Assembly (NCBI GenBank): GCA_964490245.1
Contig: CAZBAF010000004.1
Location: forward strand, 16,072 to 80,071
DNA length: 64,000 nt
Direction: 5' to 3'
From: an uncultured Candidatus Saccharibacteria bacterium
Lineage (GTDB): Bacteria > Patescibacteriota > Saccharimonadia > Saccharimonadales > JACDBH01
The stretch's first letter is position 1, and every line of letters starts with the position of its first letter. A model generated the notes under the pieces. That model had not been told where the DNA came from, searched no databases, and saw only the letters and a list, made by a program, of their open reading frames with translations. Shown in pieces: positions 6,262-36,972 of the stretch. The position numbers and the translations under genes were made by a program.

Positions 6262-6726
6262 AAGCGGCCGGAGGCCGCTATAAAACAGTGCCCGTTAGGG
6301 CTTCTGCTTTTTTTGGGCATCGGCTTTTGCCCTGAGCGGATGTGCCAAACAGACAACGGCCAAAGGCGGCCAGGTGTTAAGCAATCCCATCCCAAGTAGC
6401 AAGGGATTGTGTGTTCTGGCCGTGCCGTTGTCTGGCTTGGCAACAGGCGCATCAAGGCAAAAACGCAGCCCAAGTTTTTTGGGTTCCGTTTTTGGCGATC
6501 CAAAAATGGAACAAGTTGCTTCTTGGTTGCAAGAAGGTATGAAAAGGAGTTAGTCTTTTTTTGCATACTTTTCTGCTGAACCAGAAAAGTATGGCGGTCA
6601 AAAGCCCGATGAGGCTTTACCGAAATTGTTTTAATAGAAAAGATAGACTTAAGACCCTACAGTGGTTTATAGAAATTACTTTGAAAATCCAAGAATAAAA
6701 CAGCCTGACTCTTGGTTCTAAGAACA
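6262..6726 (+). ncRNA. Unclassified multi-copy structured element, copy A (subtype 1, with an extra hairpin insert at 6466-6555)
   Basis: Shares the ordered scaffold and central domain with copies B and C. Stems covary and loops are conserved. The internal ORF 6240..6566(-) is not frame-conserved between copies. Confidence 0.6.
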
Positions 6727-6729
6727 AAA

Positions 6730-7782
6730 CTACATAGAAGTAGCAATACGTATCAACTGGTCGCTGTTAAGCTTGGCATCGCCCTTAATGTCATACCAGA
6801 TGCCGCCGCTGATCCAGGTAGCGTTCGATTCGCCATACAGATAAATAGTACGGCCCTTGTCTTCATAAGTATGAATATTATCGTCTGTGCTGGCAACATA
6901 GTTATCCCGCAGTGTTTCGCTGTTCCAGTTTGATTGACGCTGGGTGATGCTAAAGCTGCGCTCATCTGCATTTGACTGGAAGCTGACCGTTATTTGGCCG
7001 GGTGTGTACTGAATGTGGTGGTCCAGCGCAAAGCCTGCCGGCCGCCAGCCTGGCAAGGAGGCGTTGATGCCTGCCCTGGTGGCTGCGTAACGGATGGCAA
7101 TGTTCGGTATGTTCTGATAGGCGATAAAGGCGCCCAGCAGCAGCACGCTTAAACCGGCCGCTGCAAGACCAGTCAGGCGCCGTTTACCGGCACTGCGCTT
7201 GCGCGGTGCTTTTTTGGCGGGCTCGGTATGGCTTTGGGCGGCGCGCAGGCCGTTGTCCAGCATGGTTTGTATAGCAGACGGGCGCTGGGGGGCGCTTTTA
7301 GGTACGGGCCGGACGTTTGCCGCGGCAGCCGTTGCCGGCTTGACTTTAGCTGATGCCGACGGGCGGGCAGCTGCTTTTGGAGGTTGGGTGTTGAGGTTGA
7401 ATCTACTGACAAGTTTGCTGCGTTTGACCTCTGCTGCGCGCGCCTGGCGGGCAGGATCAACGCTCGTCGGACGCGGACCGGGCCGCTTGCCTGCCGGCCG
7501 CACCGGAGCGGCCACATCGGTCACCGGACGAACGGCTTTTGGCCGCGGCGTTGCAGCCACCGGCCTTTTGACGGCCTGACGCATCAGGGTTTTGCTGCGC
7601 TCCTGGACGCGCCGTGCCGGTATGGAGGTGCCGGCCCGCCGTACGTCCTGCAGGGCGCGCCTGACGGTGGTGGCGGTTTTTGCGACCGGCACAGGCGACG
7701 AGCCGCCGGGCCGCAGCAGGTGGCCGGTACGGGCATCATAAAGCTTGCCGTTTATTTCGATGGTTGTTTGTCGTTTGCCCAC
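6730..7782 (-). CDS. Membrane-anchored hypothetical protein (basic Pro/Ala-rich N-terminal half, possible DUF4367-like C-terminal domain)
   Basis: 350-aa ORF with one TM helix (LTGLAAAGLSVLLLGAFIAY). The C-terminal beta-rich domain assignment is tentative. Confidence 0.55.
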   Translation of the reverse strand: MGKRQTTIEINGKLYDARTGHLLRPGGSSPVPVAKTATTVRRALQDVRRAGTSIPARRVQERSKTLMRQAVKRPVAATPRPKAVRPVTDVAAPVRPAGKRPGPRPTSVDPARQARAAEVKRSKLVSRFNLNTQPPKAAARPSASAKVKPATAAAANVRPVPKSAPQRPSAIQTMLDNGLRAAQSHTEPAKKAPRKRSAGKRRLTGLAAAGLSVLLLGAFIAYQNIPNIAIRYAATRAGINASLPGWRPAGFALDHHIQYTPGQITVSFQSNADERSFSITQRQSNWNSETLRDNYVASTDDNIHTYEDKGRTIYLYGESNATWISGGIWYDIKGDAKLNSDQLIRIATSM

Positions 7783-7967
7783 GTTGATGTTTTCGAGCTT
7801 TTCGTGCTGTATTAACAGCCAAGTTGTTACCCTAACTTAGTGCTTCCTATAGTACTGCTTTTTGCCTGCTTTATGCAAGACGCTTCATCCACATTGCGGG
7901 TATTCGTGATGAAAAGGCCGCAGCTGCTGTTATAATAAGGCGTGAATTTATCTCGCACTGTATACTT

Positions 7968-9437
7968 ATGGATTTTCTAGACCCACGCCGTAAAAAAGCT
8001 CACCGCCGCCGTCTGTTTATAGGCTATATCCTGATGGGTATTGGCATAATTATCGGCACCATTACTTTATTCTATCTGGCGTATGGGTATGACATCGACC
8101 GCAAGACCGGCACGGTGATTCAAAACGGCATTGTCTTTGTCGACTCCAAGCCCGGCGGCGCGGTAATTTATTTGAACGATGTACGGCAAAACAGCCGTAC
8201 CGCTTCGCGAATGGCCCTGCCCGCCGGGGTGTACACTGTACGGCTCGAGGCCGAGGGTTACCGCCACTGGGAGCGAACTTTCAATCTGGAGGGCGGACAG
8301 ATTCAGCGGCTCGTCTATCCGTTCCTGTTGCCAAACGTTTTTGAAACTGACGATATGCATCAGTACGAGTTCCAGCCGCAGCTGACCAGCCAAAGTCCGG
8401 ATCGCCGCTGGGTGTTCGTACAGCAGCCCGGTCAGACCTATCTGTTCGATGTCTTTGATCTGCGCGATGCGCAGAAAGCACCTGTTCAGGTGCTGGTTCC
8501 GCCTGCCATACTGACCGAGCCGGCGGCGGAGGCCAGCCTGAAGTTTGTCGAATGGTCCAATGATAACCGTCATGTCCTGCTGGAGCGTACCTTTGGTGAC
8601 AGAACCGAATATATTATGCTGGACCGCGAAAACCCGGCCCAGTCGGTAAATATTAATACAATGATGGGCATAGAGCCCAGGATGCCCTCGCTGCGCAACA
8701 AGCGTCATGACCAGCTGTATTATTTGGACGCCGTACCGGGCGTGTTGCGGGTAGCTGATTTGTCCAGCCGCACAATTTCGGCACCGCTTGTTTCTTCTGC
8801 TTTGGCTTATAACTCATACGGCGATGATATTGTGCTGTTTGTAACCCAGGAGGGCATGGACGAGGGGCGGGCCGAGTTTCGGGTGCTCGAGGGTGATAAG
8901 GTGTATCCGCTCAAGTCTGTCTCGGCTGCAGATGCCTATGTCCTGGATGTGTCACGCTATAGCAACAAGTGGTACTATGTGGTCGGCAGCGCCGCGGACA
9001 ACATGGCATTTGTCTATGAAAACCCCTTGCCCGCCCTGAAGGCGCAAACCAGAACCCCGCTGATTGTGACTGCGATTTTACGGCTCGAGAACCCGCGTTT
9101 TGTAAGCTTCTCGGCTAACACGCAGTTTATCGCGCTGCAAAGCGGCAATAAGCTGCTGGTGATCGACCTCGAGGACAGCCGTCAGTACCGCACCAGCCTG
9201 ACACACGATATACCGCTGGACAGGCAGCTTAAGTGGATGGACGGCCACCGACTTTTGTTTATGGTTGGCAGCCAATCGTACATTCTTGATTTCGACGGCT
9301 CAAACGAGCAAACCCTGGTGACATCGCTGGTCGATCGGCCGTACTTTGACCGCGATTATGACAACGTGTTTACGCTGGAGCGGTCCAAGCAGGATGGCAG
9401 CCGGTTTGCTTTGACCCGGACGGTGATTGAGGATTAG
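7968..9437 (+). CDS. PEGA domain membrane protein with a C-terminal beta-propeller-like region
   Basis: 489 aa with an N-terminal TM helix and a PEGA-type motif (VDSKPGGAVIYLND...YTVRLEAEGY). Confidence 0.65.
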   Translation: MDFLDPRRKKAHRRRLFIGYILMGIGIIIGTITLFYLAYGYDIDRKTGTVIQNGIVFVDSKPGGAVIYLNDVRQNSRTASRMALPAGVYTVRLEAEGYRHWERTFNLEGGQIQRLVYPFLLPNVFETDDMHQYEFQPQLTSQSPDRRWVFVQQPGQTYLFDVFDLRDAQKAPVQVLVPPAILTEPAAEASLKFVEWSNDNRHVLLERTFGDRTEYIMLDRENPAQSVNINTMMGIEPRMPSLRNKRHDQLYYLDAVPGVLRVADLSSRTISAPLVSSALAYNSYGDDIVLFVTQEGMDEGRAEFRVLEGDKVYPLKSVSAADAYVLDVSRYSNKWYYVVGSAADNMAFVYENPLPALKAQTRTPLIVTAILRLENPRFVSFSANTQFIALQSGNKLLVIDLEDSRQYRTSLTHDIPLDRQLKWMDGHRLLFMVGSQSYILDFDGSNEQTLVTSLVDRPYFDRDYDNVFTLERSKQDGSRFALTRTVIED

Positions 9438-9440
9438 GTT

Positions 9441-9824
9441 TTAGTTCTTGCGGCCAAGAGACAGGCTGTTTCATTATTGATCGTCGAAGTTATTTCGACA
9501 AACCCTGGGGACTCTTGACTTCACTTCCTTTTATTAAAACAATTTCGGTAAAACCCCATTCAGGGCTTTTGACCGACATCCTTTCTTGTACTGACAGAAA
9601 AGTAACCAAAAGAGCTCGGCCGGGAACACATCCCGTGACTGTGCTTCCAGTCGAAAAGAACAACGACGCGGCCAGAACTCAAAAATCCTTAACTACTTGG
9701 GATGGATTTTCTTAAACATACTGGCCGCCTTGGTCGTTGTTCTTTCGACGAAGCCCAATCAGGGTATGGTTCCATGCCCAGGAAAAGCTGAAACCCGCTA
9801 AAGCGGGCGCTGTTTTTTATAAAT
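9441..9824 (-). ncRNA. Unclassified multi-copy structured element, copy C (subtype 1, reverse orientation)
   Basis: The reverse complement aligns module by module with copies A and B. The central long stem is fully compensated: GTCGAAAGAACAACGAC/GTCGTTGTTCTTTTCGAC versus GCCAAACAGACAACGG/CCGTTGTCTGGTTTGGC. Confidence 0.6.
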
Positions 9825-9880
9825 CCCTACTTTCGTCGTTTACGACTCGTCAGAACGGCTATGTTATCCGTTGAGTAGGG
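9825..9880 (-). ncRNA. Type III hammerhead self-cleaving ribozyme
   Basis: The minus strand reads CCCTAC-TC|AACGG-ATAACATAG-CCGTT-CTGACGA-GTCG-TAAA-CGAC-GAAA-GTAGGG. All core nucleotides are present: CUGANGA, GAAA, the A15.1-U16.1 pair, the G10.1-C11.1 pair and C17. Predicted cleavage is between 9873 and 9872. Confidence 0.8.
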
Positions 9881-10005
9881 TTTCATGGGGGCAGAATCGG
9901 TTTTTTGACGGTGGTTAGACCGAAAGACGGGACAATCCCATCGCGATTCAACGCCTCCATGGCCTGGATAGTCCAGGGCTTTATCGAGTCTCCGTGTCAC
10001 GGGGA

Positions 10006-10443
10006 TCAGCCGGCGTTGCGCTGCTCGTTGAGCGAGCCGATACTGGCCAGCTTGGCCTTGCTGCCGAACCGCCGCCTAACTGTGTTCGCCACCAGCACGA
10101 TCAGGAACCCGATCACGTAACTGACGTTCAGGATGATGTACAGAGCCCAGGCGGGCCGAGTTACATAGGGATTGATGCTAATAAGGTAGCAAATGAGCCC
10201 ACCGCTAATCAGGCAAACGATCAGCATTCCAATGAAGTTTTCGATGGTCTCATGTCGCTTGCCTTCGCTGATCGTTATTAGCACAATGCTGCTAGCGGCG
10301 CCGATGCCGATCAGGCTGAACCCGAACATGGCCCAGAACTGCGTTCCTGGATCGGCATCGCCGGGCAGACGGAAGCTCAGGTGCCAGCAGGCGAAGCCGC
10401 TGACGAGGAACAGGACGAGGGTTGAGGCGACGATGAGTCGCAC
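10006..10443 (-). CDS. Small multi-pass membrane protein (hypothetical)
   Basis: 145-aa ORF with four hydrophobic segments. It is flanked by copies C and B of the structured element. Confidence 0.6.
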   Translation of the reverse strand: MRLIVASTLVLFLVSGFACWHLSFRLPGDADPGTQFWAMFGFSLIGIGAASSIVLITISEGKRHETIENFIGMLIVCLISGGLICYLISINPYVTRPAWALYIILNVSYVIGFLIVLVANTVRRRFGSKAKLASIGSLNEQRNAG

Positions 10444-10582
10444 GTCACGGACGGATATGATGCTCCTTAGGGAGACTCTTGGTTGTTCCCAGGTTTGGTC
10501 AAGGGTGGAAACGTCCCTATCCTCTCATTGTAGCATACTTTAATAATATTGTCAATACCTTACCCCTGTTGATGACTAAGAA

Positions 10583-10673
10583 GTGATTAGTTATTAGTGT
10601 TTAGTGATTATAAGCCAGAAGTTAGAAGTGAGTTATTTAGTAGATGGTAGTTAGTAGATAGTAGTTGGTAAAG
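10583..10673 (+). repeat. Heptanucleotide tandem array (13 units), stop-codon rich
   Basis: GTGATTA GTTATTA GTGTTTA GTGATTA TAAGCCA GAAGTTA GAAGTGA GTTATTT AGTAGAT GGTAGTT AGTAGAT AGTAGTT GGTAAAG. The 7-nt register is strict. Confidence 0.8.
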
Positions 10674-11095
10674 GCGGCGTTAGCCGCCATTTAAAACAGC
10701 GCCCTTTAGGGCTTCTGCTGTATCTGGGCATCGGCTTTTGCCCTGAGCGGATGTGCCAAACAGACAACGGCCAAAGGCGGCCAGGTGTTAAGCAATCCCA
10801 TCCCAAGTAGCAAGGGATTGTGCGTTCTGGCCGCGCCGTTGTCTGGTTTGGCAACAGACGCATCAAGGCGAAAACGTAAGCCCGAGCTTCTTTGCATACT
10901 TTCCTCCACCCCACGAAACGGGTTTCGTGGGGGCCCCGGTTGTCGGTACAAGAAAGTATGGCGGCCGAAACCCTGAAAGGGTTTGCCGAAAATTCTTTAT
11001 TAAACAAAAAAGACGGGGTTAAGACCCCCGCAGGGCTTTACCGAAACAACTTTGAAATCCAAAAATAAAACATTCTCACTCTTAGCTGTAAAAAA
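10673..11095 (+). ncRNA. Unclassified multi-copy structured element, copy B (subtype 1)
   Basis: Full scaffold present. Near-identical to A in the central domain (10727-10890). Carries the same insert hairpin as copy F. Confidence 0.6.
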
Positions 11096-11143
11096 TTTAA
11101 AAATTAGTTCTTAATCCAAGACAAGTCATGCCCATTAAAAAAC

Positions 11144-12361
11144 TTAAAAAACCCAGTTCCACATCCGTGACCACAAGGACGGTGCGTTGCCCGCCAGAAT
11201 CTCGGCACTTTGTTCGGTCTTTATGGCTGTGCTTTCTTTATTCTGGTTGGGGTCAGGACTTATCTGCTCGCCCCATATAACCAGGCGGTTAACGTTGGTG
11301 CCGGGCGGGTCGCAGGTCACTAGAATCATGGTACTGGTTTTGCCTGGCACGTCATCAAGTACGCTGATATCGGTCGGCGGCACGATCTTGGTGTCAAAGA
11401 TCCGGTACAGATAGCGCACGCCGTCTTTTTCTATGTAGAAGGTGTCGCCCAGCTCGAGCCGGTTTAAGAGCGCAAAGGCAAATTTGTATTTGCCTCGGTT
11501 AAGAATGTTGCTGCTGGAGTGGCCAAAGATGGCGCCGTTACCCTTTTCGCCCGGCTGGGAGGTGATGGGATAGTGCACGACACCGCGCTCGAGGCCCGCC
11601 TGGATATCCGCCTCTTCAATACTGGTGACATCATAGACAACCGGCGCGTCGACGTTGATTTTAGGGATGATAACGCGCGGGTCAGGGCCGACGGCTGCCG
11701 TGCCGTCCAGGATTAGCGGTGTGGCGCTGACGTCGCGGCTGGGGGTGATAAACGGCGCAATAATACGCTCATTAAAGAAGCCGAACAACAGCAACAGCAT
11801 CATAAAACAGCCGGCTGCCAAGCCAAATGCCAATGACTTGAGGTGTTGTTTGCGGCTGAGCTTGCCGCGGCCCTGGACGCGTTTAACGATTTGCTGCTTG
11901 GCGTCGGCGATGGTGTGTGCGCTGGCTTTTTTGGCGGCCGTTTTTGGCCGGAAGGTGCGCGCACCGGGGACGGGCTCGGTCTCGTCAACAAAAGTGCCGG
12001 TCACGGTTGCGGATGATTTTGCCGATGACTGCCGGCTGCCCGGGGTTTGCGCGGCGTAGAATTCCTCCCAGACCTCGTGCTTTTCGCGGTCCGGCAGCGC
12101 TTTGTAGTAATCGTGCCATTCAATCTGAATCTGGGCGAACGGTTTGCCGCTGGCAGCCAGATCGGCCATAAACTTCTGGTGCTTACTGCGTGACTTGGCC
12201 GGCTCCTGCACGCTTTCTATGGCCTCGGTTACGACATCGGGCTCGCTGGCGTAGAGGCTGTCGAGCTTTTGACGTATCAGGTTTGCGGCCGCGTCACTAC
12301 CGCCCGTCGGGTCGTCATCGGGCAGCTGCAATGATGGTTGTGAGGCAGGGTCCAGTTTCAT
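11144..12361 (-). CDS. Sortase family transpeptidase with a long N-terminal extension
   Basis: 405 aa with a TM helix, then a sortase fold with GHSS and the LVTCDP (TLxTC-type) catalytic Cys motif. Confidence 0.8.
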   Translation of the reverse strand: MKLDPASQPSLQLPDDDPTGGSDAAANLIRQKLDSLYASEPDVVTEAIESVQEPAKSRSKHQKFMADLAASGKPFAQIQIEWHDYYKALPDREKHEVWEEFYAAQTPGSRQSSAKSSATVTGTFVDETEPVPGARTFRPKTAAKKASAHTIADAKQQIVKRVQGRGKLSRKQHLKSLAFGLAAGCFMMLLLLFGFFNERIIAPFITPSRDVSATPLILDGTAAVGPDPRVIIPKINVDAPVVYDVTSIEEADIQAGLERGVVHYPITSQPGEKGNGAIFGHSSSNILNRGKYKFAFALLNRLELGDTFYIEKDGVRYLYRIFDTKIVPPTDISVLDDVPGKTSTMILVTCDPPGTNVNRLVIWGEQISPDPNQNKESTAIKTEQSAEILAGNAPSLWSRMWNWVF

Positions 12362-12478
12362 CCTTGTTCATTATAGCAAGACATCGGGGTTGTTCCCTTC
12401 ACTGGTATAGCGCGGTATAGTATAATCTATCTGTTAATTACCGCGGCGGTCAGGCAGCGGACGTTATCAACAGGTGGA

Positions 12479-12563
12479 GCCGGAGTGGCGGAATTGGTAT
12501 ACGCGTACGACTCAAAATCGTATGTCTTCGGGCTTGAGGGTTCAAGTCCCTCCTCCGGCACCA
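12479..12563 (+). tRNA. tRNA-Leu (anticodon CAA)
   Basis: GCCGGAG...CTCCGGCACCA acceptor stem, long variable arm (GTCTTCGGGCTT), GGTTCAAGTCC T-arm, anticodon loop CTCAAAA and an encoded CCA. Confidence 0.9.
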
Positions 12564-12653
12564 CGTATTGATAACAGAGCTATTTCATCCCTTTTCACCT
12601 CTTGCGCTGCTGCAGTCGAGTCGTGCAGAAAGAAGCTAAAGGTGCGCTATCGC

Positions 12654-16096: not shown

Positions 16097-17365
16097 ATGA
16101 CCGCACGATCTCCTCTGTCACCGGAACTTGCGCAGGGCGAACAGCTACTGTTTGAGAAAACTACTAATTTTATCCGCGTTACAGACGACGGCCAGTATCA
16201 ATATGCAATGCTGAAAGCGCCTATCCCGCAGTTTTTGCAGGGGCTCATCAGCTGGAGTGATACCTCTCAGGATTTTCTGATGGTAGCTGCGGCTGATATG
16301 TATGATCGCAATATTATCGACATTGCCGGGGATGATATCGAGCATACCATTGACGCCCGCAGCCTAATGGTGCCGAAAGCGCTGGACCGCAAAGCCGGCG
16401 ACGTACAGCATAGTACCCAGATCATGTTCGAGCTGGCAAACATCGCTTTTAAGGGCGTGCTGTTCAGGCCAAAGGGGCTGGATGTGCCGCGGGTTGACCG
16501 GCAGCTGTACGCATCTGACCTGCGTCATAATCATTCCGGCGGCTGGCTCGTCGATGCTTTCAGATACCGGTTGAACGCACTGAAAAGGGTCGAGACAAAA
16601 AAGAACATCGGCAAAGCGGCCGCAGGCCGCCTGCGGGAGCTGGTACCCGGCGCGGGCGAGGACGGCTTTGTGCTAGAGGAAGCACACGTGCACGATTTTA
16701 TACAGAGCGGCCGGGCAGCCACGAGGCCGCGGGCTGTTGAAGCTCTTGCCCCTGTTTTTATGGGGCGGTTTGCTGCCGGGTTGGTGCCGCTTTTAACCGC
16801 CGGCAGTGGCGAGGCCGAGTACTTGAGGCGGCGCTTTATTGATCGCGCCTACGAAGAGTTTCACGAGTCGGGAGCCAGTAAAAAAGTCGGCGAAGTACTG
16901 TTTCATAAAGAAATTGACGAGCGGGCAAAGAGGCACATTCTGGCTGGGGATGCGTATGGCGGCGGCCATCATCTGCCGCGACTGGATCCAAAATACTTCC
17001 GGGTGATCGGGCCTGTGGTCCAGATTGACGGCGGGGTAACGGGCAGCAGTCAGCGAATCAGCGTGGCCCGTACGCAGCGCATGGATAAGGACGGCCGTAC
17101 TGTGGATGACCGCGTACAGGTGTTTTTCCCGCATGAGTGGAGCGATGACGAAGTGCTGGATGCCGTATGTAATCCCAGCCGTCTTGTGCTGCACCGCGAG
17201 AAAGACGGTGTGATAGAGCAGTATATGCATGCGCGCGGTATCGCAATGAAGCGCATTCTCGGCCTGCTTGCCGACAGTGATGACGGGCCGCTGATTACAG
17301 CCTACCCCGTCGCTCATGTGTCGGCTGATCTGCAGAAGCAGCTGGGCGGCCGTCAGGCCAGCTAA
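16097..17365 (+). CDS. Hypothetical protein with a possible C-terminal bacterial EndoU-like nuclease domain
   Basis: 422 aa. The C-terminal motif RHILAGDAYGGGHH...FFPHEWSDDEVLDAV resembles the HIxxGDxxGGGH...FPxxWSxxxI signature I recall for EndoU_bacteria toxin domains. Not verified. Confidence 0.45.
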   Translation: MTARSPLSPELAQGEQLLFEKTTNFIRVTDDGQYQYAMLKAPIPQFLQGLISWSDTSQDFLMVAAADMYDRNIIDIAGDDIEHTIDARSLMVPKALDRKAGDVQHSTQIMFELANIAFKGVLFRPKGLDVPRVDRQLYASDLRHNHSGGWLVDAFRYRLNALKRVETKKNIGKAAAGRLRELVPGAGEDGFVLEEAHVHDFIQSGRAATRPRAVEALAPVFMGRFAAGLVPLLTAGSGEAEYLRRRFIDRAYEEFHESGASKKVGEVLFHKEIDERAKRHILAGDAYGGGHHLPRLDPKYFRVIGPVVQIDGGVTGSSQRISVARTQRMDKDGRTVDDRVQVFFPHEWSDDEVLDAVCNPSRLVLHREKDGVIEQYMHARGIAMKRILGLLADSDDGPLITAYPVAHVSADLQKQLGGRQAS

Positions 17366-20620: not shown

Positions 20621-20656
20621 ACAAAAAGACAAAAAGGGTCCGACCCTTTACAGGGG
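20621..20656. repeat. REP-like hairpin, left flank of the RAYT gene
   Basis: AAAAAGACAAAAAGGGTC-C-GACCCTTTACAGGGG. It is the inverted copy of 21338-21372. Confidence 0.6.
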
Positions 20657-20681
20657 TAAAAAATTGCAGTAACCTGTTGTT

Positions 20682-21299
20682 ATGCCCGCAAAGAATACCG
20701 TACGCGCGTTTGAGACAGGGGGATATTATCATGTCTACAACAGGGGTGCCGGCAAGCGGATTGTGTTTCATGACGACTACGACAAGGCATATTTTTTAGG
20801 CATCATTGCGCGATACCTCGACCCAAAAGTTCATGATTATGACGGTAATGGAGCGGAATATCCCAAATACGATACAGACATAGAGCTCCTCGCTTATTGC
20901 CTAATGGGCAATCACATCCACTTATTGTTCTACATAAAGCAAAGCCCGAATGCGCTATCCATGTTAGTAAAGTCCATAATGGTCAGTTACACGATGTATT
21001 TTAACTTAAAGTACAAGGAATCCGGTACGCTTTTTCAGGGTAAATATCGTGCGTCACGAATTACTCGTGATGACTACCTTCAGCACATTAGTCGCTACAT
21101 ACACCTAAATCCAAGGAACTATGCGACCTACCAGTTTTCGAGCTTTCAGGCGTACACCGGTGGCGCAGTTCCCCGCTGGTTGAATCCTCAAAGACTCCTG
21201 GCGCTTTTTAATACAAATGAGTACAAAGCATTTGTCGCTGATTACGAGGGGCATAAAGAGGCTCTTGAGTCGATACGCTCTGAGTTAGCCGACAGATAA
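20682..21299 (+). CDS. IS200-like / REP-associated tyrosine transposase (RAYT, Y1 HUH family)
   Basis: 205 aa with YHVYNRG, the HUH motif YCLMGNHIHLL, and SRYIHLNP carrying the catalytic Tyr region. Confidence 0.8.
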   Translation: MPAKNTVRAFETGGYYHVYNRGAGKRIVFHDDYDKAYFLGIIARYLDPKVHDYDGNGAEYPKYDTDIELLAYCLMGNHIHLLFYIKQSPNALSMLVKSIMVSYTMYFNLKYKESGTLFQGKYRASRITRDDYLQHISRYIHLNPRNYATYQFSSFQAYTGGAVPRWLNPQRLLALFNTNEYKAFVADYEGHKEALESIRSELADR

Positions 21300-21337
21300 G
21301 CCCCGCTAGGTGTTAACAGATGAGTGCAGAGATATAC

Positions 21338-21372
21338 CTCTGTAAAGGGTCAGACCCTTTTGTCCTTTTTAC
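21338..21372. repeat. REP-like hairpin, right flank of the RAYT gene
   Basis: CTCTGTAAAGGGTC-A-GACCCTTTTGTCCTTTTTAC. Its reverse complement matches the left-flank repeat at about 27 of 31 positions. Confidence 0.6.
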
Positions 21373-25059: not shown

Positions 25060-26073
25060 TTATGACTGGGTGCCGGTTTTTGCCCGTGGCTGCTTAAACA
25101 TAAACGAACCGATAATGCCGCCGCACAACAGCCCGCCGATAATCAGCAGACTAAGATTGGTCGGAATGTGTATATTGAACCAGGCGATGCCAAAGATCTC
25201 GCGTGGTGCAATCACCAGTTTGAGCCCGACAAACAGCAGCAACAACGCCAGGGCGTAGCTTAGCATCCAGAATCGTTCTTTAATGTGGTCAAAGACAAAG
25301 TACAGCGCGCGCATGCCTAAAATAGCCGCCGCGTTGCTGGCAACGATAAGGAACGGTTCGTGCGATACGGCCAGTGCGGCCGGTACGCTGTCTACGGCAA
25401 AGATGACGTCAGTAAACTCAACAACCAGCAGTGCCATGAACAGCATGGTGGCGACCCGTTTGCCGTTTTTGCGAGTGAACAGCTTGTGCCCGTCAAAACT
25501 GTGGGTCATAGGGATAATGGCTTTCGCGACCCTGAAAAAGCGGCTGTTATGCGGGTCGTATACGTGATCTTTTTTGGTTCTAAGCAATCTTATGCCGCTC
25601 CACAGCAGGATACCGCCGAACAGGATAAGTATTGGCTCGAACCGCTTGATTAAGGCAATACCGGCAAAGACAAATATGGTACGCAGTACGATTGCGCCAA
25701 TGACACCCCAGAACAAAATACGGTGCTGGTACTTTTTGGGAATGCGAAAATACGCCAGAATAATCGACCAGGTAAAGACATTGTCGATGGACAGGGATTT
25801 TTCGACCAGGTAGGCGCTGAAGTACTGGCTGGCCGCCTCGCCGCCAAATGCGTTGAGGATGACGATACCCAGTCCGGCACCGAGCAACACCCACGCAACG
25901 CTTTGCCAAATGGCTTCACGAATCCCGACAGGCTTGTCCTTGCGGTGCAGTACCAAAATGTCGACCAGAATAAGCAGCAAGAACCAGCCGCCCAAAAGTG
26001 CCCAGTGCCACCACTGGATATGGAGATTAAGAGCCAGTGTATTAACCGCAGCTTCAGCAAACAAATGCATCAA
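25060..26073 (-). CDS. TerC family integral membrane protein
   Basis: 337 aa, multi-TM, with E.SLS.DN and FA.DS.PA motifs. Confidence 0.85.
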   Translation of the reverse strand: MMHLFAEAAVNTLALNLHIQWWHWALLGGWFLLLILVDILVLHRKDKPVGIREAIWQSVAWVLLGAGLGIVILNAFGGEAASQYFSAYLVEKSLSIDNVFTWSIILAYFRIPKKYQHRILFWGVIGAIVLRTIFVFAGIALIKRFEPILILFGGILLWSGIRLLRTKKDHVYDPHNSRFFRVAKAIIPMTHSFDGHKLFTRKNGKRVATMLFMALLVVEFTDVIFAVDSVPAALAVSHEPFLIVASNAAAILGMRALYFVFDHIKERFWMLSYALALLLLFVGLKLVIAPREIFGIAWFNIHIPTNLSLLIIGGLLCGGIIGSFMFKQPRAKTGTQS

Positions 26074-26128
26074 TAAAAAATAGTTTACGGTTTTTTATGG
26101 CAGAATGCGAGAGGGATATGGGGGAGGA

Positions 26129-26240
26129 GTGGTTAGTGGTTAGTGTCTAGTGATTAGTTATTAGTGTTTAGTGATTAGAAGCCAGAAGTGCGAAGTGAGC
26201 TAAGAGTAGATGGTAGTTAGTAGATAGTAGTTGGAATAGG
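26129..26240 (+). repeat. Heptanucleotide tandem array (16 units), stop-codon rich
   Basis: GTGGTTA x2, GTGTCTA, GTGATTA, GTTATTA, GTGTTTA, GTGATTA, GAAGCCA, GAAGTGC, GAAGTGA, GCTAAGA, GTAGATG, GTAGTTA, GTAGATA, GTAGTTG, GAATAGG. Confidence 0.8.
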
Positions 26241-26590
26241 CGACGTTAGCCGCCTATTAAAACAGCGCCCTTTAGGGCTTCGGCCTGTTCTGGCCATGCC
26301 CGCCTGCCCTGATTCGGGTGGTGTAATAAAACACAATAGAGAGCAAGGCGTCAGCCCCAATACTCAAATATGAAACTATTGGGGCCGACTGAAAGGAGTC
26401 CGCCTTACGTATTGTATTTTTGAACAACAAGCCGAGTCACGGCAGGCGGGCCGGCCGAGCTTCTTTGTATTCTTTTCTGTCGACACAGAAAAGAATGTCG
26501 GTCAAAAGCCCTGTAAGGGCTTTACCGAAATTGTTTTAATAGAAAAGATAGACTTAAGACCCCGCAGGGGTTCATCGAAATAAGTCTTAA
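26238..26590 (+). ncRNA. Unclassified multi-copy structured element, copy D (subtype 2)
   Basis: The 5' and 3' modules match subtype 1. The central domain (26292-26455) is different and is shared, with covariation, by copies E and F. Confidence 0.6.
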
Positions 26591-27156
26591 AAATCAATCC
26601 CCTTATTAGCAAGAAACTTATCATCAAAGTGGTGTTTCATTTTGGTCATGTGGGTAGCGATGTCGACAATATCCAGTAGGTCTTCCGGGAAGTTGCGGCC
26701 GGTCAGACACAGGCTGGTCTTGCCTGCCCGCTTTTCTATCAGTTCTTTAAGTTGGTCTTTGGTGAGCAGGCCGTCATTGACGGCGTTGTTGATTTCATCG
26801 CATATGACCAGATCGTAGTTTCCGCCGGCTGCTGCCTGCAGGGCGGCATTGAACGTATCGGCGGCGGCCTGTTTGTGCTCTTGTTCGGTTACGTCTTTTT
26901 CGCTCAAAGCGCCGGCGTTATAGAACCCCTTGCCGCCCTTATGAAACAGCAGCTTATCGCCGTACAGCGGCTGGATGCTTTCGATAAAATCATGCTCGCT
27001 CACCTGCCAGGATTTGACGAACTGAATAAACGCCACCTGCCAGCCGGCACCGAGTGCGCGCGCCAGCAGGCCAACAGCGGCAGACGTCTTGCCCTTGCCC
27101 TCGCCGGTGTAGACGACTACAACCGAATCTTTGGTCTGATAATCCTCAAATGCCAT
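26587..27156 (-). CDS. Cob(I)yrinic acid a,c-diamide adenosyltransferase (CobA/BtuR type)
   Basis: 189 aa with YTGEGKGKTSAA.G...RA.G.G..V...QF.K and ..CDE. Confidence 0.8.
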   Translation of the reverse strand: MAFEDYQTKDSVVVVYTGEGKGKTSAAVGLLARALGAGWQVAFIQFVKSWQVSEHDFIESIQPLYGDKLLFHKGGKGFYNAGALSEKDVTEQEHKQAAADTFNAALQAAAGGNYDLVICDEINNAVNDGLLTKDQLKELIEKRAGKTSLCLTGRNFPEDLLDIVDIATHMTKMKHHFDDKFLANKGIDF

Positions 27157-27179
27157 TTTCTAAGAGCAAGTATAGCAGC

Positions 27180-27614
27180 TCAGGCGGCCGAATTGTCCTC
27201 GCGGGCGGCACTGTGGATCATAAAAGCCAGTATGGTTCGGCGGGCGCGGATAAGCTGCGAGAACTTTTCGTCAGACGAATAGCGCTGCCGTTCGGCAAGC
27301 AGTCTGGTCATAAGTTCGTCCTCGTAGATTGTGTCTTCTACCGCATCGTCGTAGACAGCGGTGTTATTGCGGGCAAGCCCGATCAGTTCTTTCTCATCGT
27401 CGTTAGTGGTGGCTGCGAATGGACGCTCGATGAGCGAGGCCAGAGACAGCGCCCCCAGTTCTCTTTGATGGCGGTCGGTGCCGTGTACCCACTCGGTACT
27501 AAAAAGCCCCAGCAACTGCTCGGCTGCTATCTCGGTATGTTCGGCCAATCGGGCAAGCCACTCTGCCCGCTTGTCGGGATCCGGTGTGTAGCTGCTGTGT
27601 GCACTGCCGCGCAT
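27180..27614 (-). CDS. Hypothetical protein
   Basis: 144-aa acidic ORF with no recognised family. Confidence 0.5.
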   Translation of the reverse strand: MRGSAHSSYTPDPDKRAEWLARLAEHTEIAAEQLLGLFSTEWVHGTDRHQRELGALSLASLIERPFAATTNDDEKELIGLARNNTAVYDDAVEDTIYEDELMTRLLAERQRYSSDEKFSQLIRARRTILAFMIHSAAREDNSAA

Positions 27615-27688
27615 AGTTCTAATCTAATACAAAACAATACTTATCAGCTGTGATAATTATCACCGTACCCCTGTGATGCAGATGTCTT

Positions 27689-27934
27689 TTACTGGTTGAC
27701 GATGTTGTGAGCCTGAAGCGCCGCGTCAATCTTGGGGCGGTCAAAGCCGATAATGATATCACCCTTGATATCTATGACCGGTATGCCCATCTGGCCGGAT
27801 TTTTGAATGGATTCCTCGGCGTGGGCACGGTCTGCCTCGATGTCTTTAACTTCATACTTTACGCCCAATTTGTCCAGATATTCCATGGCGGCGTGGCAGA
27901 ATGCGCACCAGGTGGCGCTGTATACGGTTATCAT
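27689..27934 (-). CDS. Glutaredoxin/NrdH-like redoxin
   Basis: 81 aa with a WCAFC active site (CxxC) and GIPVI. Confidence 0.8.
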   Translation of the reverse strand: MITVYSATWCAFCHAAMEYLDKLGVKYEVKDIEADRAHAEESIQKSGQMGIPVIDIKGDIIIGFDRPKIDAALQAHNIVNQ

Positions 27935-28140
27935 TTGTTTTGCTCCTTTTCTTTGACAGGCAGTTCAATGACGCTGAATTTCTGTAAGACAAAAATCGCG
28001 GAGCCCATCAGCCCGGCAACCAGCGCGGTGACCAGGATGGTAATAAGAATTATCTCCGGCAACGAGTGGGTAACGGCCTCGGCGACGGTTTGGTGATGTA
28101 CTCCGTTATGGGCGAATGTATCCATATCTTTATTATACAC
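27931..28140 (-). CDS. Small membrane protein (hypothetical)
   Basis: 69 aa with one TM helix. A 4-nt overlap joins it to the downstream redoxin gene. Confidence 0.45.
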   Translation of the reverse strand: MYNKDMDTFAHNGVHHQTVAEAVTHSLPEIILITILVTALVAGLMGSAIFVLQKFSVIELPVKEKEQNK

Positions 28141-28181
28141 CTGATTACTTTTTATATAAGCCTGCTTGCTATAATAACGGT

Positions 28182-28802
28182 ATGAACAAATACAAGACGG
28201 TTGCGTTGCTGGTTGGTATAGGGTTTTTGGGCGGAGTGCTGTGGCTGGCGGCCATGCGGTTCTTTCTTGTTGCCACTCCCGAGACGCACTATCATGCCAA
28301 TTTTGCCGTCTATATCAACGGGCAGCGTGAGGCGTTTGAAGAGTTTACTTACTATGAAGAAGTTGCCGCCTGCACCAGCGGCTATGCTGATAACCCTAAG
28401 GGGCGCGTACACATGCACGATCAGGTCAATGATGTTATCCATGTGCATGACAAGCGGGTGACGTATGGCAACTTTTTTCAGAATATCGGCTGGAATGTCG
28501 GGCCCGGCTATATTGCTACCCTGGACCGGGTCTATGTAGCTGACGAAGATAACACAGTGGTGTACATGCTTAACGGCGAGAAAGTTCGCGATATCAGCGG
28601 CCGTGTGATCGGCAATCTGGACCGGCTACTGGTGGCCTATGGCGATGCCTCTGATGAGGAGCTGCAGCGATGGTACGATGACGTGCCAGCCACCGCGGAA
28701 GAGGTCAACAAGTATCAGGATCCTGCCAGCTGCAGCGGCATAGGCGGTGCGGGTTATGACTCTTTGGGTAATCGCATCAAGCGCGCCACTTTTTGGCCGT
28801 GA
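28182..28802 (+). CDS. Membrane-anchored His-rich hypothetical protein
   Basis: The ORF runs from 28116, but MNKYKTVALLVGIGFLGG... at 28182 gives a signal-anchor. A TATAAT box at 28170-28175 lies 6 nt upstream, which suggests a leaderless mRNA. Confidence 0.6.
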   Translation: MNKYKTVALLVGIGFLGGVLWLAAMRFFLVATPETHYHANFAVYINGQREAFEEFTYYEEVAACTSGYADNPKGRVHMHDQVNDVIHVHDKRVTYGNFFQNIGWNVGPGYIATLDRVYVADEDNTVVYMLNGEKVRDISGRVIGNLDRLLVAYGDASDEELQRWYDDVPATAEEVNKYQDPASCSGIGGAGYDSLGNRIKRATFWP

Positions 28803-28806
28803 GCCT

Positions 28807-29290
28807 GAGTTATTGGTAGATAGTAGTTAGTAGTTGGTATATGGAATAGGCGACAAAGCCGCCATTAAAAAACGCCCGCTTTAGCGGGCTTCTGCTGTGT
28901 ATGGCAATGCCCACCTGCCCTGATTCGGCTGTTCGTCAAAAATACAATAGAGAGCGAGGACTCAGTCCAAAACTTCTACCTAAAATCAGTATGAAGTTTT
29001 GGACCGACTGGAAGGAGTCGTCCGAGCGTATTGTATTTTTGAACAACAAGCCGAGTCACGGCAGGCGGGCCGGCCGAGTTCTTTTGCATTCTTTTCTGTC
29101 GACACAGAAAAGAATGTCGGATAAAAGTCCGACAGGACTTAGCCGAAATGTCTTGTTGGCGCAAGAAAGAAAGGGTCGGTTCTTGGCTACAAGAACAAAA
29201 AGGCCCTTGAAAGGGCTGGTCGAAACTATTTAAATAAAAAGATGGTATAAAACCTGCATAACTAAGCCAAAACAAGACTTAAAATAAAAA
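28807..29290 (+). ncRNA. Unclassified multi-copy structured element, copy E (subtype 2, short heptamer leader, duplicated 3' module)
   Basis: Aligns with D and F. Two consecutive copies of the hairpin + CGAAA + AT-rich module sit at 29120-29155 and 29199-29255. Confidence 0.55.
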
Positions 29291-29395
29291 AGAATAATAA
29301 CTACACTACAAGAACTAGAAAATTACGAAAGAACACAAAACCCTGCAAAGATTTTGCAAAAACGGCCCAATATTTTTATCAAAAGCCACCAAGTC

Positions 29396-29425
29396 TTGTA
29401 GACTTCTCACCCTATCTGTTATAGT
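29396..29425 (+). promoter_or_regulatory. Candidate atp operon promoter (TTGTAG-N18-TATAGT)
   Basis: The hexamers lie 11 nt upstream of the atpZ ATG at 29437, so the leader would be very short. Confidence 0.45.
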
Positions 29426-32046: not shown

Positions 32047-32136
32047 GAAATATGAAATAAGAAATAAGAAAAATGGGAAAGACATTGGGCTACTGACTGC
32101 AGCTACCCATATTTCCTATTCCCTATTGCATATTTC
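32047..32136. repeat. Heptamer-based imperfect inverted repeat (empty IVS-like hairpin) between atpH and atpA
   Basis: The arms GAAATATGAAATAAGAAATAAGAAAAATGGG and CCCATATTTCCTATTCCCTATTGCATATTTC are complementary at 26 of 31 positions, with a 28-nt loop. Confidence 0.7.
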
Positions 32137-32157: not shown

Positions 32158-33714
32158 ATGGCGATAAAGGATGATATTTCGATTGCGGACTTGTCAGCGG
32201 ATATCCGGGCTGCGATTGCCGAGCTGAAAAAGCGTCCCGAAATAGAAGAAACAGGCATCGTTACCCGTGTCGGTGACGGCGTGGTCTGGATTTATGGGCT
32301 GACAAGTGTTGGCTATAACGAAATGGTCGAAGTCGAAGCCGCCGACGGCGGTACTATGACAGCTTTTGCCTTTAACCTGGGCAGCGAAGAGATCGGTGCG
32401 GTGCTGCTGGGTGAGGATACGCATGTCAAAGCCGGCGCTAAAGCACATCGTACCGGCAAAGTTGTCGAGGTGCCTGTTGGGCCGGAGCTGATCGGCCGCG
32501 TGGTTGACCCTATGGGCCGTCCGCTGGACGGTAAAGGCGCCATCAAAGCCAAGCAGACCAGCCCGACCGAAAAAATTGCCCCAGGCGTACTGGCGCGCAA
32601 ATCTGTCCACGAACCAATGATGACTGGTATTATCGCAATCGATGCAATGGTGCCGATTGGCCGCGGTCAGCGCGAGCTGATTATCGGCGACCGCCAGACT
32701 GGTAAGACTGCCGTGGCGCTTGACACCATGATCAACCAGCACCGCCAAAACACCGGGGTCATTAACATCTATGTCGCCATTGGTCAGAAGATGAGTAAAA
32801 TCGCCCGCCTGGTGGAGCGCCTGAAGCGCGAGGGTGTCATGGAGCAGACGATTGTGGTGGCAACCAGTGCTGCCGACCCTGCACCGCTGCAGTATCTGGC
32901 CCCGTACGCCGGTGCTGCGATGGGCGAATATTTCCGCGACAACGCCCAGCATGCTCTGATTATTTTTGACGACCTGACCAAGCACGCAGCTGCGTACCGC
33001 CAGATGTCGCTGCTATTACGCCGCCCGCCAGGACGCGAAGCGTACCCCGGTGACGTGTTCTACCTGCACAGCCGCCTGCTTGAGCGTGCCGCCAAGCTCA
33101 GTGACGAGCTGGGGGCTGGATCGCTCACTGCCCTGCCGATTATCGAGACGCAGGCCGGTGACATCAGCGCCTATATCCCGACCAACGTGATTTCTATCAC
33201 GGACGGTCAGATTTTCATGGAAACCAACCTGTTCTATCAGGGTATCCGCCCGGCTGTATCGGTCGGTTTGTCGGTGAGCCGTGTAGGCGGTAACGCCCAG
33301 ACTAAAGCTGTTAAGTCCGTTGCCAAGTCTTTGCGCGTTGATCTGGCACAGTTCCGCGAACTGGCCAGCTTTAGCCAATTCTCGACCGATCTTGACGCTG
33401 ACACCAAGCAGCGCATTGAACGCGGACAGCGTCTGACCGAACTGCTCAAGCAACCGCAATATACCCCGTACAGCACCTGGCAGATGTACGTCATGCTGCT
33501 GGCAGCAACTGAGGGGGCATTTGACGAGGTCGAGGTGCCAAAGATTAAAAAGGCCGAGGCCGCTCTGCTGCGTGAATTCAAGGCTAAACACGGTAAGCTG
33601 CTGGAGAAAATCGACAGCGGTGCCGAAGCCGAGGATAAAGAGAAAGAAGAAATCCTCAAGCTTGCCCAACATGTTGCCGAAAGCTATAAGCCAGTCGAGA
33701 AAGAAGCAAAATAA
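32158..33714 (+). CDS. atpA: F0F1 ATP synthase subunit alpha
   Basis: 518 aa with the Walker A motif GDRQTGKT and the full alpha signature. Confidence 0.95.
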
Positions 33715-33717
33715 GAC

Positions 33718-33794
33718 ATGAAATATGAAATAGGAAAAATGAAAAACGGGATCGCGATAAAAGCCCATATTCCATATTTCATATTTCATATTCC
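33718..33794. repeat. Heptamer-based imperfect inverted repeat (empty IVS-like hairpin) between atpA and atpG
   Basis: The arms ATGAAATATGAAATAGGAAAAATGAAAAACGGG and CCCATATTCCATATTTCATATTTCATATTCC are complementary at about 24 of 31 positions. Confidence 0.65.
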
Positions 33795-33811
33795 TGCAAG
33801 CGGGGCTTGTC

Positions 33812-36489: not shown

Positions 36490-36522
36490 CTCCTAAGACT
36501 GGAGTGAGGAGTGCGGAGAGCT

Positions 36523-36972
36523 GAAATATGAAAAATGAAATAAGGAATATGGGGGATGGGGCCAAAGCCCTCAAGTCGTTCCAGCAGCTGGATGCATGGC
36601 AGGCCAGTCGTAAACTTTTCTTTATTGTTTTTCATATTACAAAAAAATTTCCCAGCGAAGAGCTGTTCGTTTCAGTGTCGCAAATGCGTCGAGCGGCACT
36701 GTCAGTGGCCTCAAACATTGCCGAAGGATTTGGCAGATCTTCCGCCGCTGATAAATTGCATTTTTATGTTATGGCAAGGGGCTCTCTGACAGAACTGCAG
36801 AACCAGATCATATTAACCAAAGACGTCGATCTCATTCGCGAGGCGGATGCGACAGTCGTCCAGTCGCAAGCTGAACTTGCCCATAAGCTTGTTGTTGGAC
36901 TTATTAAAGCTACGGAGAAGAGAAAATAATGCAGCTAATCCCCTATTTCATATTTCATATTTCATACTCCCC
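36523..36972 (+). mobile_element. IVS-like cassette: heptamer inverted repeats enclosing a four-helix-bundle ORF
   Basis: The left arm GAAATATGAAAAATGAAATAAGGAATATGGGGG pairs with the right arm CCCCTATTTCATATTTCATATTTCATACTCCCC over about 28 bp with one bulge. The architecture matches 23S rRNA intervening sequences that carry this ORF family. Confidence 0.45.
36528..36929 (+). CDS. Four-helix-bundle protein (TIGR02436 / 23S rRNA-intervening-sequence protein family, Avd-like)
   Basis: 133 aa (or 126 aa from Met8 at 36549) with F..L.AWQ......FP..E......Q.RRAA.SV.SNIAEG.GR......F...ARGSL.EL. Confidence 0.8.
   Translation: MKNEIRNMGDGAKALKSFQQLDAWQASRKLFFIVFHITKKFPSEELFVSVSQMRRAALSVASNIAEGFGRSSAADKLHFYVMARGSLTELQNQIILTKDVDLIREADATVVQSQAELAHKLVVGLIKATEKRK

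Follow-up and report, generated by a model that had tools for sequence, protein, structure and literature searches.

An apparently mosaic family of hairpin-built intergenic repeats with two alternative tips in a Saccharibacteria genome

A 64 kb stretch of DNA from an uncultured Candidatus Saccharibacteria bacterium (contig CAZBAF010000004.1; here the window, numbered from its first base) holds six copies, lettered A to F, of a long and strongly folded intergenic element. The interval 26292–26455 is the central rod hairpin, 165 nt, of copy D, which fills the 513 nt gap between terC (25060–26073, minus strand) and cobA (26587–27156, minus strand). On balance, with confidence only a little above even, we read this interval as the rod of a mosaic intergenic repeat built from hairpins. 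The repeat would be persistent and non-autonomous in the manner of repetitive extragenic palindromic (REP) doublets forming hairpins (REPINs), bacterial interspersed mosaic elements (BIMEs) or BOX elements, reshuffled by recombination, with its folded strand under selection.

The elements are 350–580 nt in length and all six are intergenic, together making up about 3 kb or about 5% of the window. They share one order of modules, namely a variable 5′ part, h2 (a GC hairpin after TAAAACAG), the rod, CCGAGCTTCTTTG, h3 (10–12 bp), h4 (GGTCAAAAGCCC..GGGCTTTACC), GAAATTGTTTTAATA and usually h5, and the hairpins flanking the rod are homologous in all copies. The variable 5′ module is a heptamer tract with hairpin h1, a hammerhead, or an outward-facing promoter. 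A motif from the 3′ scaffold matched six of six copies with no match expected by chance, and an nhmmer profile built from the alignment recovered the same six and no further match in the window. The rod measures 165–205 nt, and its arms are 73–84% complementary across the copies in an inverted-repeat scan. All copies share its lower part, where the helix CCCUGAUUCGG/CCGAGUCACGG bears a U-G pair and a conserved mismatch, while the tip or apex (about 85–95 nt) occurs in two versions, subtype 1 in A, B and C and subtype 2 in D, E and F. The copies are as follows.

6255–6730, plus strand: copy A, with h1 at 6264–6278, a subtype-1 apex at 6346–6439 and the loop ATCCCAAGTAG at 6389–6399.
9440–9824, minus strand: copy C (9440–9880 with its 5′ module), with h2, a rod with a subtype-1 apex at 9653–9746 (loop 9693–9703), h3, h4 and h5.
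10570–11100, plus strand: copy B, with a heptamer tract, h1 at 10673–10688, a subtype-1 apex at 10757–10850 (loop 10800–10810) and a mini-hairpin at 10909–10932.
26128–26587, plus strand: copy D.
28806–29385, plus strand: copy E, the whole segment inserted relative to the empty site in a relative (contig L085), with a rod at 28903–29074 and a subtype-2 apex at 28939–29040.
50326–50860, plus strand: copy F, with a heptamer tract at 50326–50437, a rod at 50490–50696 and a subtype-2 apex at 50527–50659.

The first-pass annotation of this DNA had described two interchangeable central domains within one scaffold, and as an observation this stands, with six copies, two tip types and pairing helices all present. 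Exchange is limited, however, to the apical 85–95 nt (26328–26421 in D, 6346–6439 in A). The subtype-2 domain had also been described as a different domain bounded by a long-range stem; there are indeed two tip types, but that stem and the helices next to it are shared and homologous in both subtypes. The lower two-thirds of the rod can be aligned between them as homologous sequence (compare CCCTGATTGGGCTTCGTCGAAAGAACAA in C with CCCTGATTCGGCTGTTCGTCAAAAATACAA in E). The loop annotated as invariant in subtype 1, ATCCCAAGTAG, was found exactly three times in the window, at 6389 (plus strand), 9693 (minus strand) and 10800 (plus strand), and its closing stem is CAATCCC/GGGATTG in A and B and AAAATCC/GGATTTT in C, as had been noted.

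The modules of copy D, with the rod at their centre, are listed below.

26128–26238, plus strand: C-poor heptamer tract with a 7 nt period (AGTGATT AGTTATT ... AGTAGAT AGTAGTT), also in B and F and shorter in E.
26239–26254, plus strand: h1, GGCGAC GTTA GCCGCC.
26267–26278, plus strand: h2, GCCC TTTA GGGC, linked to h1 by TATTAAAACAG.
26292–26455, plus strand: rod, with basal helices GGCC/GGCC, GCCCGCCTGCC/GGCAGGCGGGC and TGATTCGG/CCGAGTCA (conserved U-G), then the apex.
26328–26421, plus strand: subtype-2 apex, with helix a ACAATA/TATTGT, helix b AAGGCG/CGCCTT and hairpin CCCCAATA/TATTGGGG.
26469–26496, plus strand: h3, a perfect 12 bp hairpin, ATTCTTTTCTGT cgac ACAGAAAAGAAT.
26500–26526, plus strand: h4, GGTCAAAAGCCC tgtaa GGGCTTTACC, with an A-tract, GC stem and T-tract, terminator-like on both strands.
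26550–26587, plus strand: h5, AGACTTA...CCCC gca GGGG...TAAGTCT, adjoining the cobA stop codon (26587–26589, minus strand).

The long-range stem reported for D, GCCCGCCTGCC with GGCAGGCGGGC, does pair, its arms (26298–26322 and 26427–26451) being 84% complementary over 25 nt. Above it the rod continues with TGATTCGG/CCGAGTCA, an A/T-rich helix with ACAATA/TATTGT at its end, helix b and a three-way tip, where unpaired TCAG and CCGACTGAAAGGAGTC form a junction beside the hairpin. The heptamer tracts preceding B, D, E and F (10582–10665, 26128–26238, 28806–28845 and 50326–50437) are C-poor, degenerate (AGTGATT, AGTTATT, AGTAGAT, GGTAGTT and others), rich in GTAG and in stop codons, and vary in length like a minisatellite; at the E site the tract belongs to the inserted segment.

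Covariation in the apex was scored on a hand-checked alignment of the D, E and F subtype-2 tips from which the nested insert of F had been removed. Watson-Crick pairs occupied 92% of the cells and 10 of the 29 pairs were changed on both sides, a number reached by none of 500 shuffles; sliding the registers by 1–3 columns left 0–3 such pairs. The three-way covariation described for this domain is thus borne out, and its helices a and b and its hairpin pair in D, E and F as listed there. With RNAalifold, compensated pairs numbered 12 of 59 and 15 of 52, and the D apex scored 110.6 bits with model R1. Separate covariance models for the two apices, a check suggested with the original observation, returned the three plus three known window copies with filters off and no hybrids. 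The statement that every helix is compensated between copies holds for pairing and covariation in general and less well for helix a, which is identical in D and E, so that compensation is seen only against F. Each apex type keeps invariant unpaired motifs, the AUCCCAAGUAG loop in subtype 1 and the UCAG / CCGACUGRAAGGAGUC junction in subtype 2. The near constancy claimed for the subtype-2 junction applies to D and E; in F it is interrupted by a nested hairpin of 39–41 nt, giving CCGACTGA and GAAAGGAGTC. A search allowing two mismatches found CCGACTGRAAGGAGTC at 26385 and 29004, in D and E only, because the nested hairpin splits the motif in F.

These helices could act in either strand. The whole D element folds far more stably than its shuffled versions, with z = −8.2 (plus strand) and −11.4 (minus strand). 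No one-sided (G-U) intermediates were seen among the varying apex pairs, and single mismatches within helices comprised 6 of wobble type on the annotated strand, 5 on the other and 12 of other kinds. Folding energy favours the annotated strand in four of the six window copies, and in six of eight when two copies from a second genome (see below) are added. The covariation is strand-neutral and so is not in itself proof of an RNA.

The best evidence that the annotated strand is transcribed is a hammerhead ribozyme at copy C, absent from the first-pass annotation. Upstream of copy C is an orphan open reading frame (ORF; 10443–10006, minus strand) for a predicted membrane protein of 145 aa. It has a single homologue, at 42% identity, among 5.8 billion proteins, a collection in which the exact sequence is absent. 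The contig encoding this homologue, L112, belongs to a second, distant Saccharibacteria genome and is syntenic with window positions 7968–10560, and the neighbouring PEGA protein is 64% identical. The features of this region are as follows.

10527–10555, minus strand: near-consensus promoter TTGACA-17-TACAAT ahead of the orphan ORF, the hammerhead and copy C, placed back to back with copy B at its 5′ end.
9884–9960, minus strand: multi-helix leader domain (about 80 nt) lying between the hammerhead and the ORF stop codon (10006), conserved in L112 (about 1195–1278, plus strand).
9825–9880, minus strand: type III hammerhead at the 5′ end of copy C, sharing the strand of the element and standing where other copies have the heptamer tract and h1.

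The hammerhead reads CCCUACUC^AACGG-auaacauag-CCGUU-CUGACGA-GUCGU-aaa-ACGAC-GAA-AGUAGGG. Its core is complete in both genomes (C3-U4-G5-A6-N7-G8-A9, G12-A13-A14, the A15.1-U16.1 pair and H17, with a CUC cleavage triplet), stems I, II and III are 5, 4–5 and 7 bp, and the minimum-energy fold is the hammerhead three-way fold. In L112 it lies in the same place (1281–1339, plus strand), ahead of a copy of the element, with a core that differs in N7 only (C versus A); five pairs are compensated between the two and none is broken. A strict descriptor matched these two alone in 1.69 Mb and nothing in 300 simulated windows. In a relaxed Rfam scan, Hammerhead_3 (RF00008) matched 9831–9874 (minus strand) at 26.7 bits, against a gathering score of 48.5, with E = 0.015 (5 kb), and the L112 hammerhead was not among the Rfam matches at E ≤ 1. 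In the leader domain, CAUGGAGG...CCCCCAUG encloses two hairpins, several pairs are compensated between the genomes, and there was no Rfam match. Conservation of the hammerhead on the element strand makes it probable that this strand is transcribed at the C site and cut just upstream of the element. Prokaryotic hammerheads lie next to small, poorly conserved ORFs, with which the arrangement at copy C agrees, and the biological role of bacterial hammerheads is an open question (PMC6155905).

Identity between copies shifts abruptly along the element and groups them in conflicting ways. A and B are 97% identical in the tip and 25% in the linker and h3. B and F share 85% in the 5′ flank, 88% in h1–h2 and 93% in the linker and h3 versus 21% in the tip. 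D and E are 100% identical in the 3′ arm of the rod versus 40% in h5, and A and D are 85% identical in h5 versus 15% in the tip. C and E have a variant of h2 in common. A 40 nt mini-hairpin (CCGGGGY-CCCCRCRRAAC..GTTYYGYGGGG-TRRRG) is found in the h3 loop of B and F, the site of nested insertion, and once more in the junction of the F tip. The two in copy F are:

50592–50630, plus strand: mini-hairpin in the apex junction, CCCCGCAGAAC ct GTTCTGTGGGG, inverted, by its flanks, relative to those at 10909 and 50720.
50715–50751, plus strand: mini-hairpin in the h3 loop, CCCCACGAAAC ag GTTTCGTGGGG.

The abrupt shifts in identity together with nested and inverted inserts indicate rearrangement at the DNA level, by recombination or conversion between copies and by nested insertion. 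From these comparisons the family appears to be a recombining, insertion-polymorphic mosaic. Of the two explanations offered in the first-pass annotation, a modular, recombining element is therefore favoured, by the incongruent segment identities, the nested mini-hairpin and a swapped apex at the syntenic C site described below. The other, paralogous functional specialisation, may have some footing in the invariant unpaired motifs of each apex and in a subtype-1 copy found at the syntenic B site of L112.

The cores of the mini-hairpins in the window are at 10909–10932, 50599–50622 and 50720–50743. Related ones occur at 908–943 and 17856–17883 in L103, one of a group of relatives' contigs (L103–106) that are without the large elements, where they stand in intergenic DNA by themselves. 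Another small hairpin, TCTTGGnnnCAAGA (TCTTGG nnn CAAGA), occurs at 6521–6534, 6710–6723, 9446–9459 and 29181–29194, within or beside A, C and E only; a scan of both strands gave 11 matches, eight of them being these four sites on both strands, where about one was expected.

Contigs of relatives, retrieved through homologues of CobA and of a REP-associated tyrosine transposase (RAYT), are syntenic with the window. The elements at the D and E sites were absent from all six relative contig groups spanning those sites, which indicates that D and E are insertions in this lineage. At the D site the gap between cobA and terC is 513 nt in the window, 0 nt in L107 (TAA directly followed by ATG), 30 nt in L110 and L111 and 67 nt in L085, so that D divides a gene pair that is stop/start-adjacent in L107; in L103–106 the same site holds 136 nt of unrelated hairpins with a 21 nt direct repeat on either side. 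At the E site a gap of 635 nt in the window compares with 50–96 nt in L085, L103, L107 and L108. In L083, L108 and L109 the D site carries a different, very diverged hairpin array with only small modules in common with copy A. A short-read Logan contig from the same organism (L001) ends inside copy D, a break that is expected since D is a repeat. In L103, the insert between cobA and terC is 116 nt, hairpin-rich and bracketed by a 21 nt direct repeat (17087–17107, 17224–17244) that covers the start codon of terC and the final codons of cobA, in appearance an insertion with a long target duplication.

Other sites have been kept. Contig L112 holds two further copies, G and H (nhmmer E = 4e-28 and 3e-27). 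Copy H, at the B site, has a subtype-1 tip 71–72% identical to those of A and B; its inner hairpin and loop are nearly unchanged (AUCUAAAGUAG), while its outer helices are rewritten with compensation (ACACUACAAC/GUUGUGGUGU versus CAGACAACGG/CCGUUGUCUG). The tip of copy G, at the C site, is of subtype 2 and shares 91% identity with that of F (73% with D, 64% with E), whereas copy C of the window is of subtype 1. Across the eight copies, five unrelated sequences make up the basal helix P2, each of them fully paired. Occupation of the syntenic B and C sites indicates that the family predates the split of the two genomes and that some sites were retained, and the different subtypes at the orthologous C site indicate that the tip or the whole rod was exchanged there.

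Searches further afield returned little. A profile of the whole element, run with nhmmer over up to 111 loci (about 1.7 Mb), matched only L001 and L112 outside the window. An exact-pattern scan for the 3′ scaffold motif gave no match in species-representative genomes and none in viral contigs; one match in metagenome contigs, inside an RHS-like ORF, was dismissed as chance. Two core motifs had 14 and 1 matches in viral contigs, also taken as chance because none matched the element profile. No element match was found by blastn against phages and plasmids. Rfam at the gathering score found two tRNAs only in the window, and relaxed scans of the six copies gave nothing credible for the body of the element. 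The family is restricted to a few Saccharibacteria lineages.

Several observations weigh against a mobile mosaic repeat. Covariance models of the apices found no copies when about 40 other Saccharibacteria contigs (619 kb) were scanned, and such patchiness would not be expected of a widely successful mobile element. No transposase, terminal inverted repeats (TIRs) or clear target-site duplication were found for the elements, and the only transposase-like gene in the window is RAYT-like, with flanking repeats that are unlike the elements by blastn. The hammerhead is present in only one of the six window copies, and no promoter was recognised on the element's strand for A, B, D and F. Syntenic retention beside neighbours 64% identical, an apex 91% identical between genomes, and invariant loops beside covarying stems point to purifying selection of the kind that a functional RNA gene would show.

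A first alternative starts from these last features. The copies would be paralogous genes for a large (300–400 nt) modular non-coding RNA, with a shared scaffold, apices that bind different partners and 5′ modules that set the 5′ end. We consider this unlikely, and it is with the same reserve that we entertain a large modular class of Saccharibacteria RNA with a common scaffold, two apices with distinct partners, release by hammerheads at some loci and mobility as a secondary trait. In L112 the hairpin and loop of subtype 1 have hardly changed, against about 71% identity over the remainder of the apex, the 91% identity of the subtype-2 apex is between genomes with 64% identical PEGA proteins, two sites are occupied syntenically in both genomes, the hammerhead is on the same strand, and the sense fold beats the antisense in six of eight copies. 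However, wobble-type mismatches have no strand bias (6 versus 5) and there are no one-sided changes in the apex; four copies have no recognisable promoter, and orientation to neighbouring genes is mixed. The insertions D and E are recent and lie in junctions that relatives keep tight, one of them once a stop/start overlap. One orthologous site carries different apex types in the two genomes, the supposedly conserved junction is split by a nested insert in F, and no copies were found in the 619 kb of related genomes.

The RAYT-like gene raises a second alternative. It encodes an HUH tyrosine transposase (20682–21299, plus strand; Pfam Y1_Tnp 3e-9, NCBIfam REP_Tyr_transpos 40 bits against a cut-off of 80 bits), is single-copy, and is syntenic in L103–106 at 73% identity. 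Its flanks carry 27 nt inverted repeats (20632–20658 and 21335–21361) with the core AAAGGGTCNGACCCTTT, found nowhere else in the window. A vague resemblance between h5 and these repeats in an alignment had no counterpart by blastn and was rejected as evidence. If the elements were REPIN- or BIME-type single-stranded DNA substrates of this transposase, a DNA hairpin would be required and an RNA role would not. The presence and synteny of the gene would fit, as would the strand-neutral and almost purely Watson-Crick helices, the location of five of the six copies on the strand with positive GC skew, and several GTAG motifs 5′ of h1. For REPINs, which also form hairpins, compensatory changes have been documented (PMC3116915) and vertical persistence is long, and the conserved mismatch and wobble of the basal helix recall the bulge that E. 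coli REP sequences require (PMC8266576). We nevertheless hold this explanation to be distinctly improbable. The repeats flanking the gene occur there only and are unlike the elements, so the REPtron arrangement, in which the same repeats flank the RAYT gene, is not seen, and the NCBIfam score is half the cut-off. A REP is a palindrome of 20–50 nt after a tetranucleotide, usually GTAG (PMC8266576), and the elements are ten times that length; GTAG is frequent in the heptamer tracts and present in the subtype-1 loop, at no fixed distance from any palindrome. Contigs L103–106 have the same RAYT gene and lack the elements, and the conserved hammerhead indicates that at least one locus uses this strand as RNA.

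A third alternative, that the copies are cis-acting cassettes (terminators, 3′-end stabilisers, insulators or promoters) selected by the host and duplicated by ordinary recombination without being mobile themselves, draws on the gene setting. The 3′ end of the element touches the stop codon of the converging gene in four of six copies; that of A adjoins the gene at 6730–7782 (minus strand) after extra hairpins at 6482–6512 and 6517–6537, and that of C adjoins the PEGA gene (7968–9437, plus strand). Terminator-like hairpins exceed the shuffle expectation in 26000–29400 (10 versus 3.6) and 6000–11200 (17 versus 6.2), several of them coinciding with hairpins of the elements; the excess is absent from the short region holding copy F (1 versus 1.2). 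One promoter lies beside copy A:

6150–6178, minus strand: consensus promoter TTGACA-17-TATAAT at the 5′ end of copy A, facing away from it and with a homologue next to the diverged element of L083.

Near-consensus outward sigma-70-type promoters are also found in L083 (about 10904–10949) and L112 (about 585–625), and they share with those at A and B the upstream motif TTACCCCTGTT (element-strand reading). The promoter beside A is 87% identical to the one beside the diverged element in L083, which suggests that the promoter travels with the element. Terminator-like h4, h5 and h2, the adjacent stop codons and the outward consensus promoters at A and B, with their L083 and L112 homologues, notwithstanding, we judge the cassette explanation very unlikely, given that F lies between divergent genes where a terminator is needless, D splits the formerly overlapping cobA–terC pair, a rod of 165–205 nt with conserved loops far exceeds what termination needs, and relatives manage without elements at the same junctions.

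Known classes of element were also set aside. For a classical MITE (miniature inverted-repeat transposable element), the two ends are different hairpins with no TIR, and comparison of filled and empty sites gave at most a 3–4 nt GCC repeat at E and none recognisable at D. A possible TIR between the 5′ heptamers of E and its A-rich 3′ tail is a low-complexity resemblance, absent from the inverted-repeat scan, which stops short of a separation of about 450 nt. An IscB/TnpB guide RNA (HEARO or omega RNA) was rejected, as the 43 window ORFs scanned contain no such domains and there was no Rfam match, and for other guide RNAs, retrons, integron attC sites and CRISPR the window contains neither protein genes nor a repeat architecture to match. 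A retrozyme-like circular RNA requires two bracketing hammerheads, and one per locus was found. Finally, a coding role was rejected, the ORFs that overlap the copies (6240–6566, 10651–11007, 28901–29233 and 50568–50831) differing between copies, with indels that are not multiples of three.

The window carries ordinary chromosomal host genes (gltX, the atp operon, cyoB, a pcrA-like gene, a sortase gene, smpB and others), and its AtpD is at most 86% identical to proteins of Candidatus Saccharimonadales metagenome-assembled genomes. Its exact CobA protein is recorded in an NCBI contig of 80,758 nt and in one Logan sample. Two further sets of repeats were seen among these genes. In the atp operon, at 32047–32136, 33705–33795, 36498–36561 and 36937–36970, A/G-rich tracts with a 7 nt period (GAAATAT GAAATAA ...) lie near imperfectly complementary pyrimidine-rich tracts; at the first two the arms are 83–88% complementary and could form A/U-rich hairpins between cistrons, and the last two stand about 375 nt apart. 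The same gaps in L083 are long enough for small ORFs to have been called. At the tRNA-Leu gene (12479–12563), inverted repeats at 12463–12485 and 12553–12575, 87% complementary, reach past both ends, and the leader and trailer could pair through them.

If the interval is part of a persistent mosaic repeat, as we prefer, the family would multiply rarely and be homogenised or reshuffled by recombination between copies, with the two apices as alternative, exchangeable modules. Its structure would be under selection because the folded single strand matters, as RNA or as single-stranded DNA. The immediate effect may be to punctuate transcription units through terminator-like hairpins close to stop codons and through outward promoters, and at the copy C locus predicted ribozyme cleavage would release a structured RNA with a 5′-OH end. 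Mobilisation, transcription of the other copies, and terminator and promoter activity are inferences.

Saccharibacteria and other members of the candidate phyla radiation (CPR) have small, tightly packed genomes, and the family takes up about 5% of this stretch; should that density hold genome-wide, it would be a major shaper of transcription units in the lineage. Swappable tips, nested mini-hairpins and a changed tip at an orthologous site offer a tractable case of exchange between structured modules. The C site provides a defined and conserved context for a bacterial hammerhead, made up of a promoter, a small orphan ORF, a leader domain, the hammerhead and a structured element of 300 nt. If the RNA explanation were true, the elements would represent a new class of large structured RNA from microbial dark matter. 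What is new here is a structured intergenic repeat associated with a ribozyme, in a phylum for which literature searches on intergenic repeats in Saccharibacteria and Patescibacteria (CPR) gave nothing relevant.

Set against known systems, the elements fail the defining tests of REP sequences and REPINs, classical MITEs, retrozymes and any Rfam family. Their closest likeness in organisation is to REPINs and REP-BIMEs, in being extragenic and multi-copy, in forming a long arm-paired hairpin with a compensated spacer, in their mosaic structure, in vertical persistence with occasional insertions, and in sharing a genome with a single-copy RAYT-like gene. The inverted doublet hairpin with compensatory spacer changes by which REPINs are recognised (PMC3116915) is present, and BIMEs are likewise mosaic combinations of palindromic units (PMC8266576). 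They differ in size (350–580 nt, where a REP has 20–50 nt and a REPIN about 100 nt), in being without a fixed unit of GTAG plus palindrome, in having two alternative tips with invariant loops, and in the hammerhead of one copy. Eukaryotic retrozymes and viroid-like repeats are also non-coding, multi-copy, strongly paired and associated with type III hammerheads; here the descriptor finds one hammerhead per locus, there are no flanking direct repeats and no nearby reverse transcriptase, and the host is bacterial. The ribozyme at copy C resembles the type III hammerhead of RF00008 in its catalytic core, three stems, CUC triplet, covariation between two genomes and small-ORF neighbour, but it scores below the gathering threshold and is a module of one of the six window copies, not the element itself. 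The BOX elements of Streptococcus pneumoniae and the enterobacterial repetitive intergenic consensus (ERIC) sequences or intergenic repeat units (IRU) of enterobacteria are modular intergenic repeats too: a conserved frame holds internal modules that vary or internal insertions at specific sites, folding is strong, and co-transcription with adjacent genes is frequent. The elements described here have no sequence relation to these and lie in a patescibacterial (CPR) host; they are also larger and have more modules, exchangeable apices and an association with a ribozyme.

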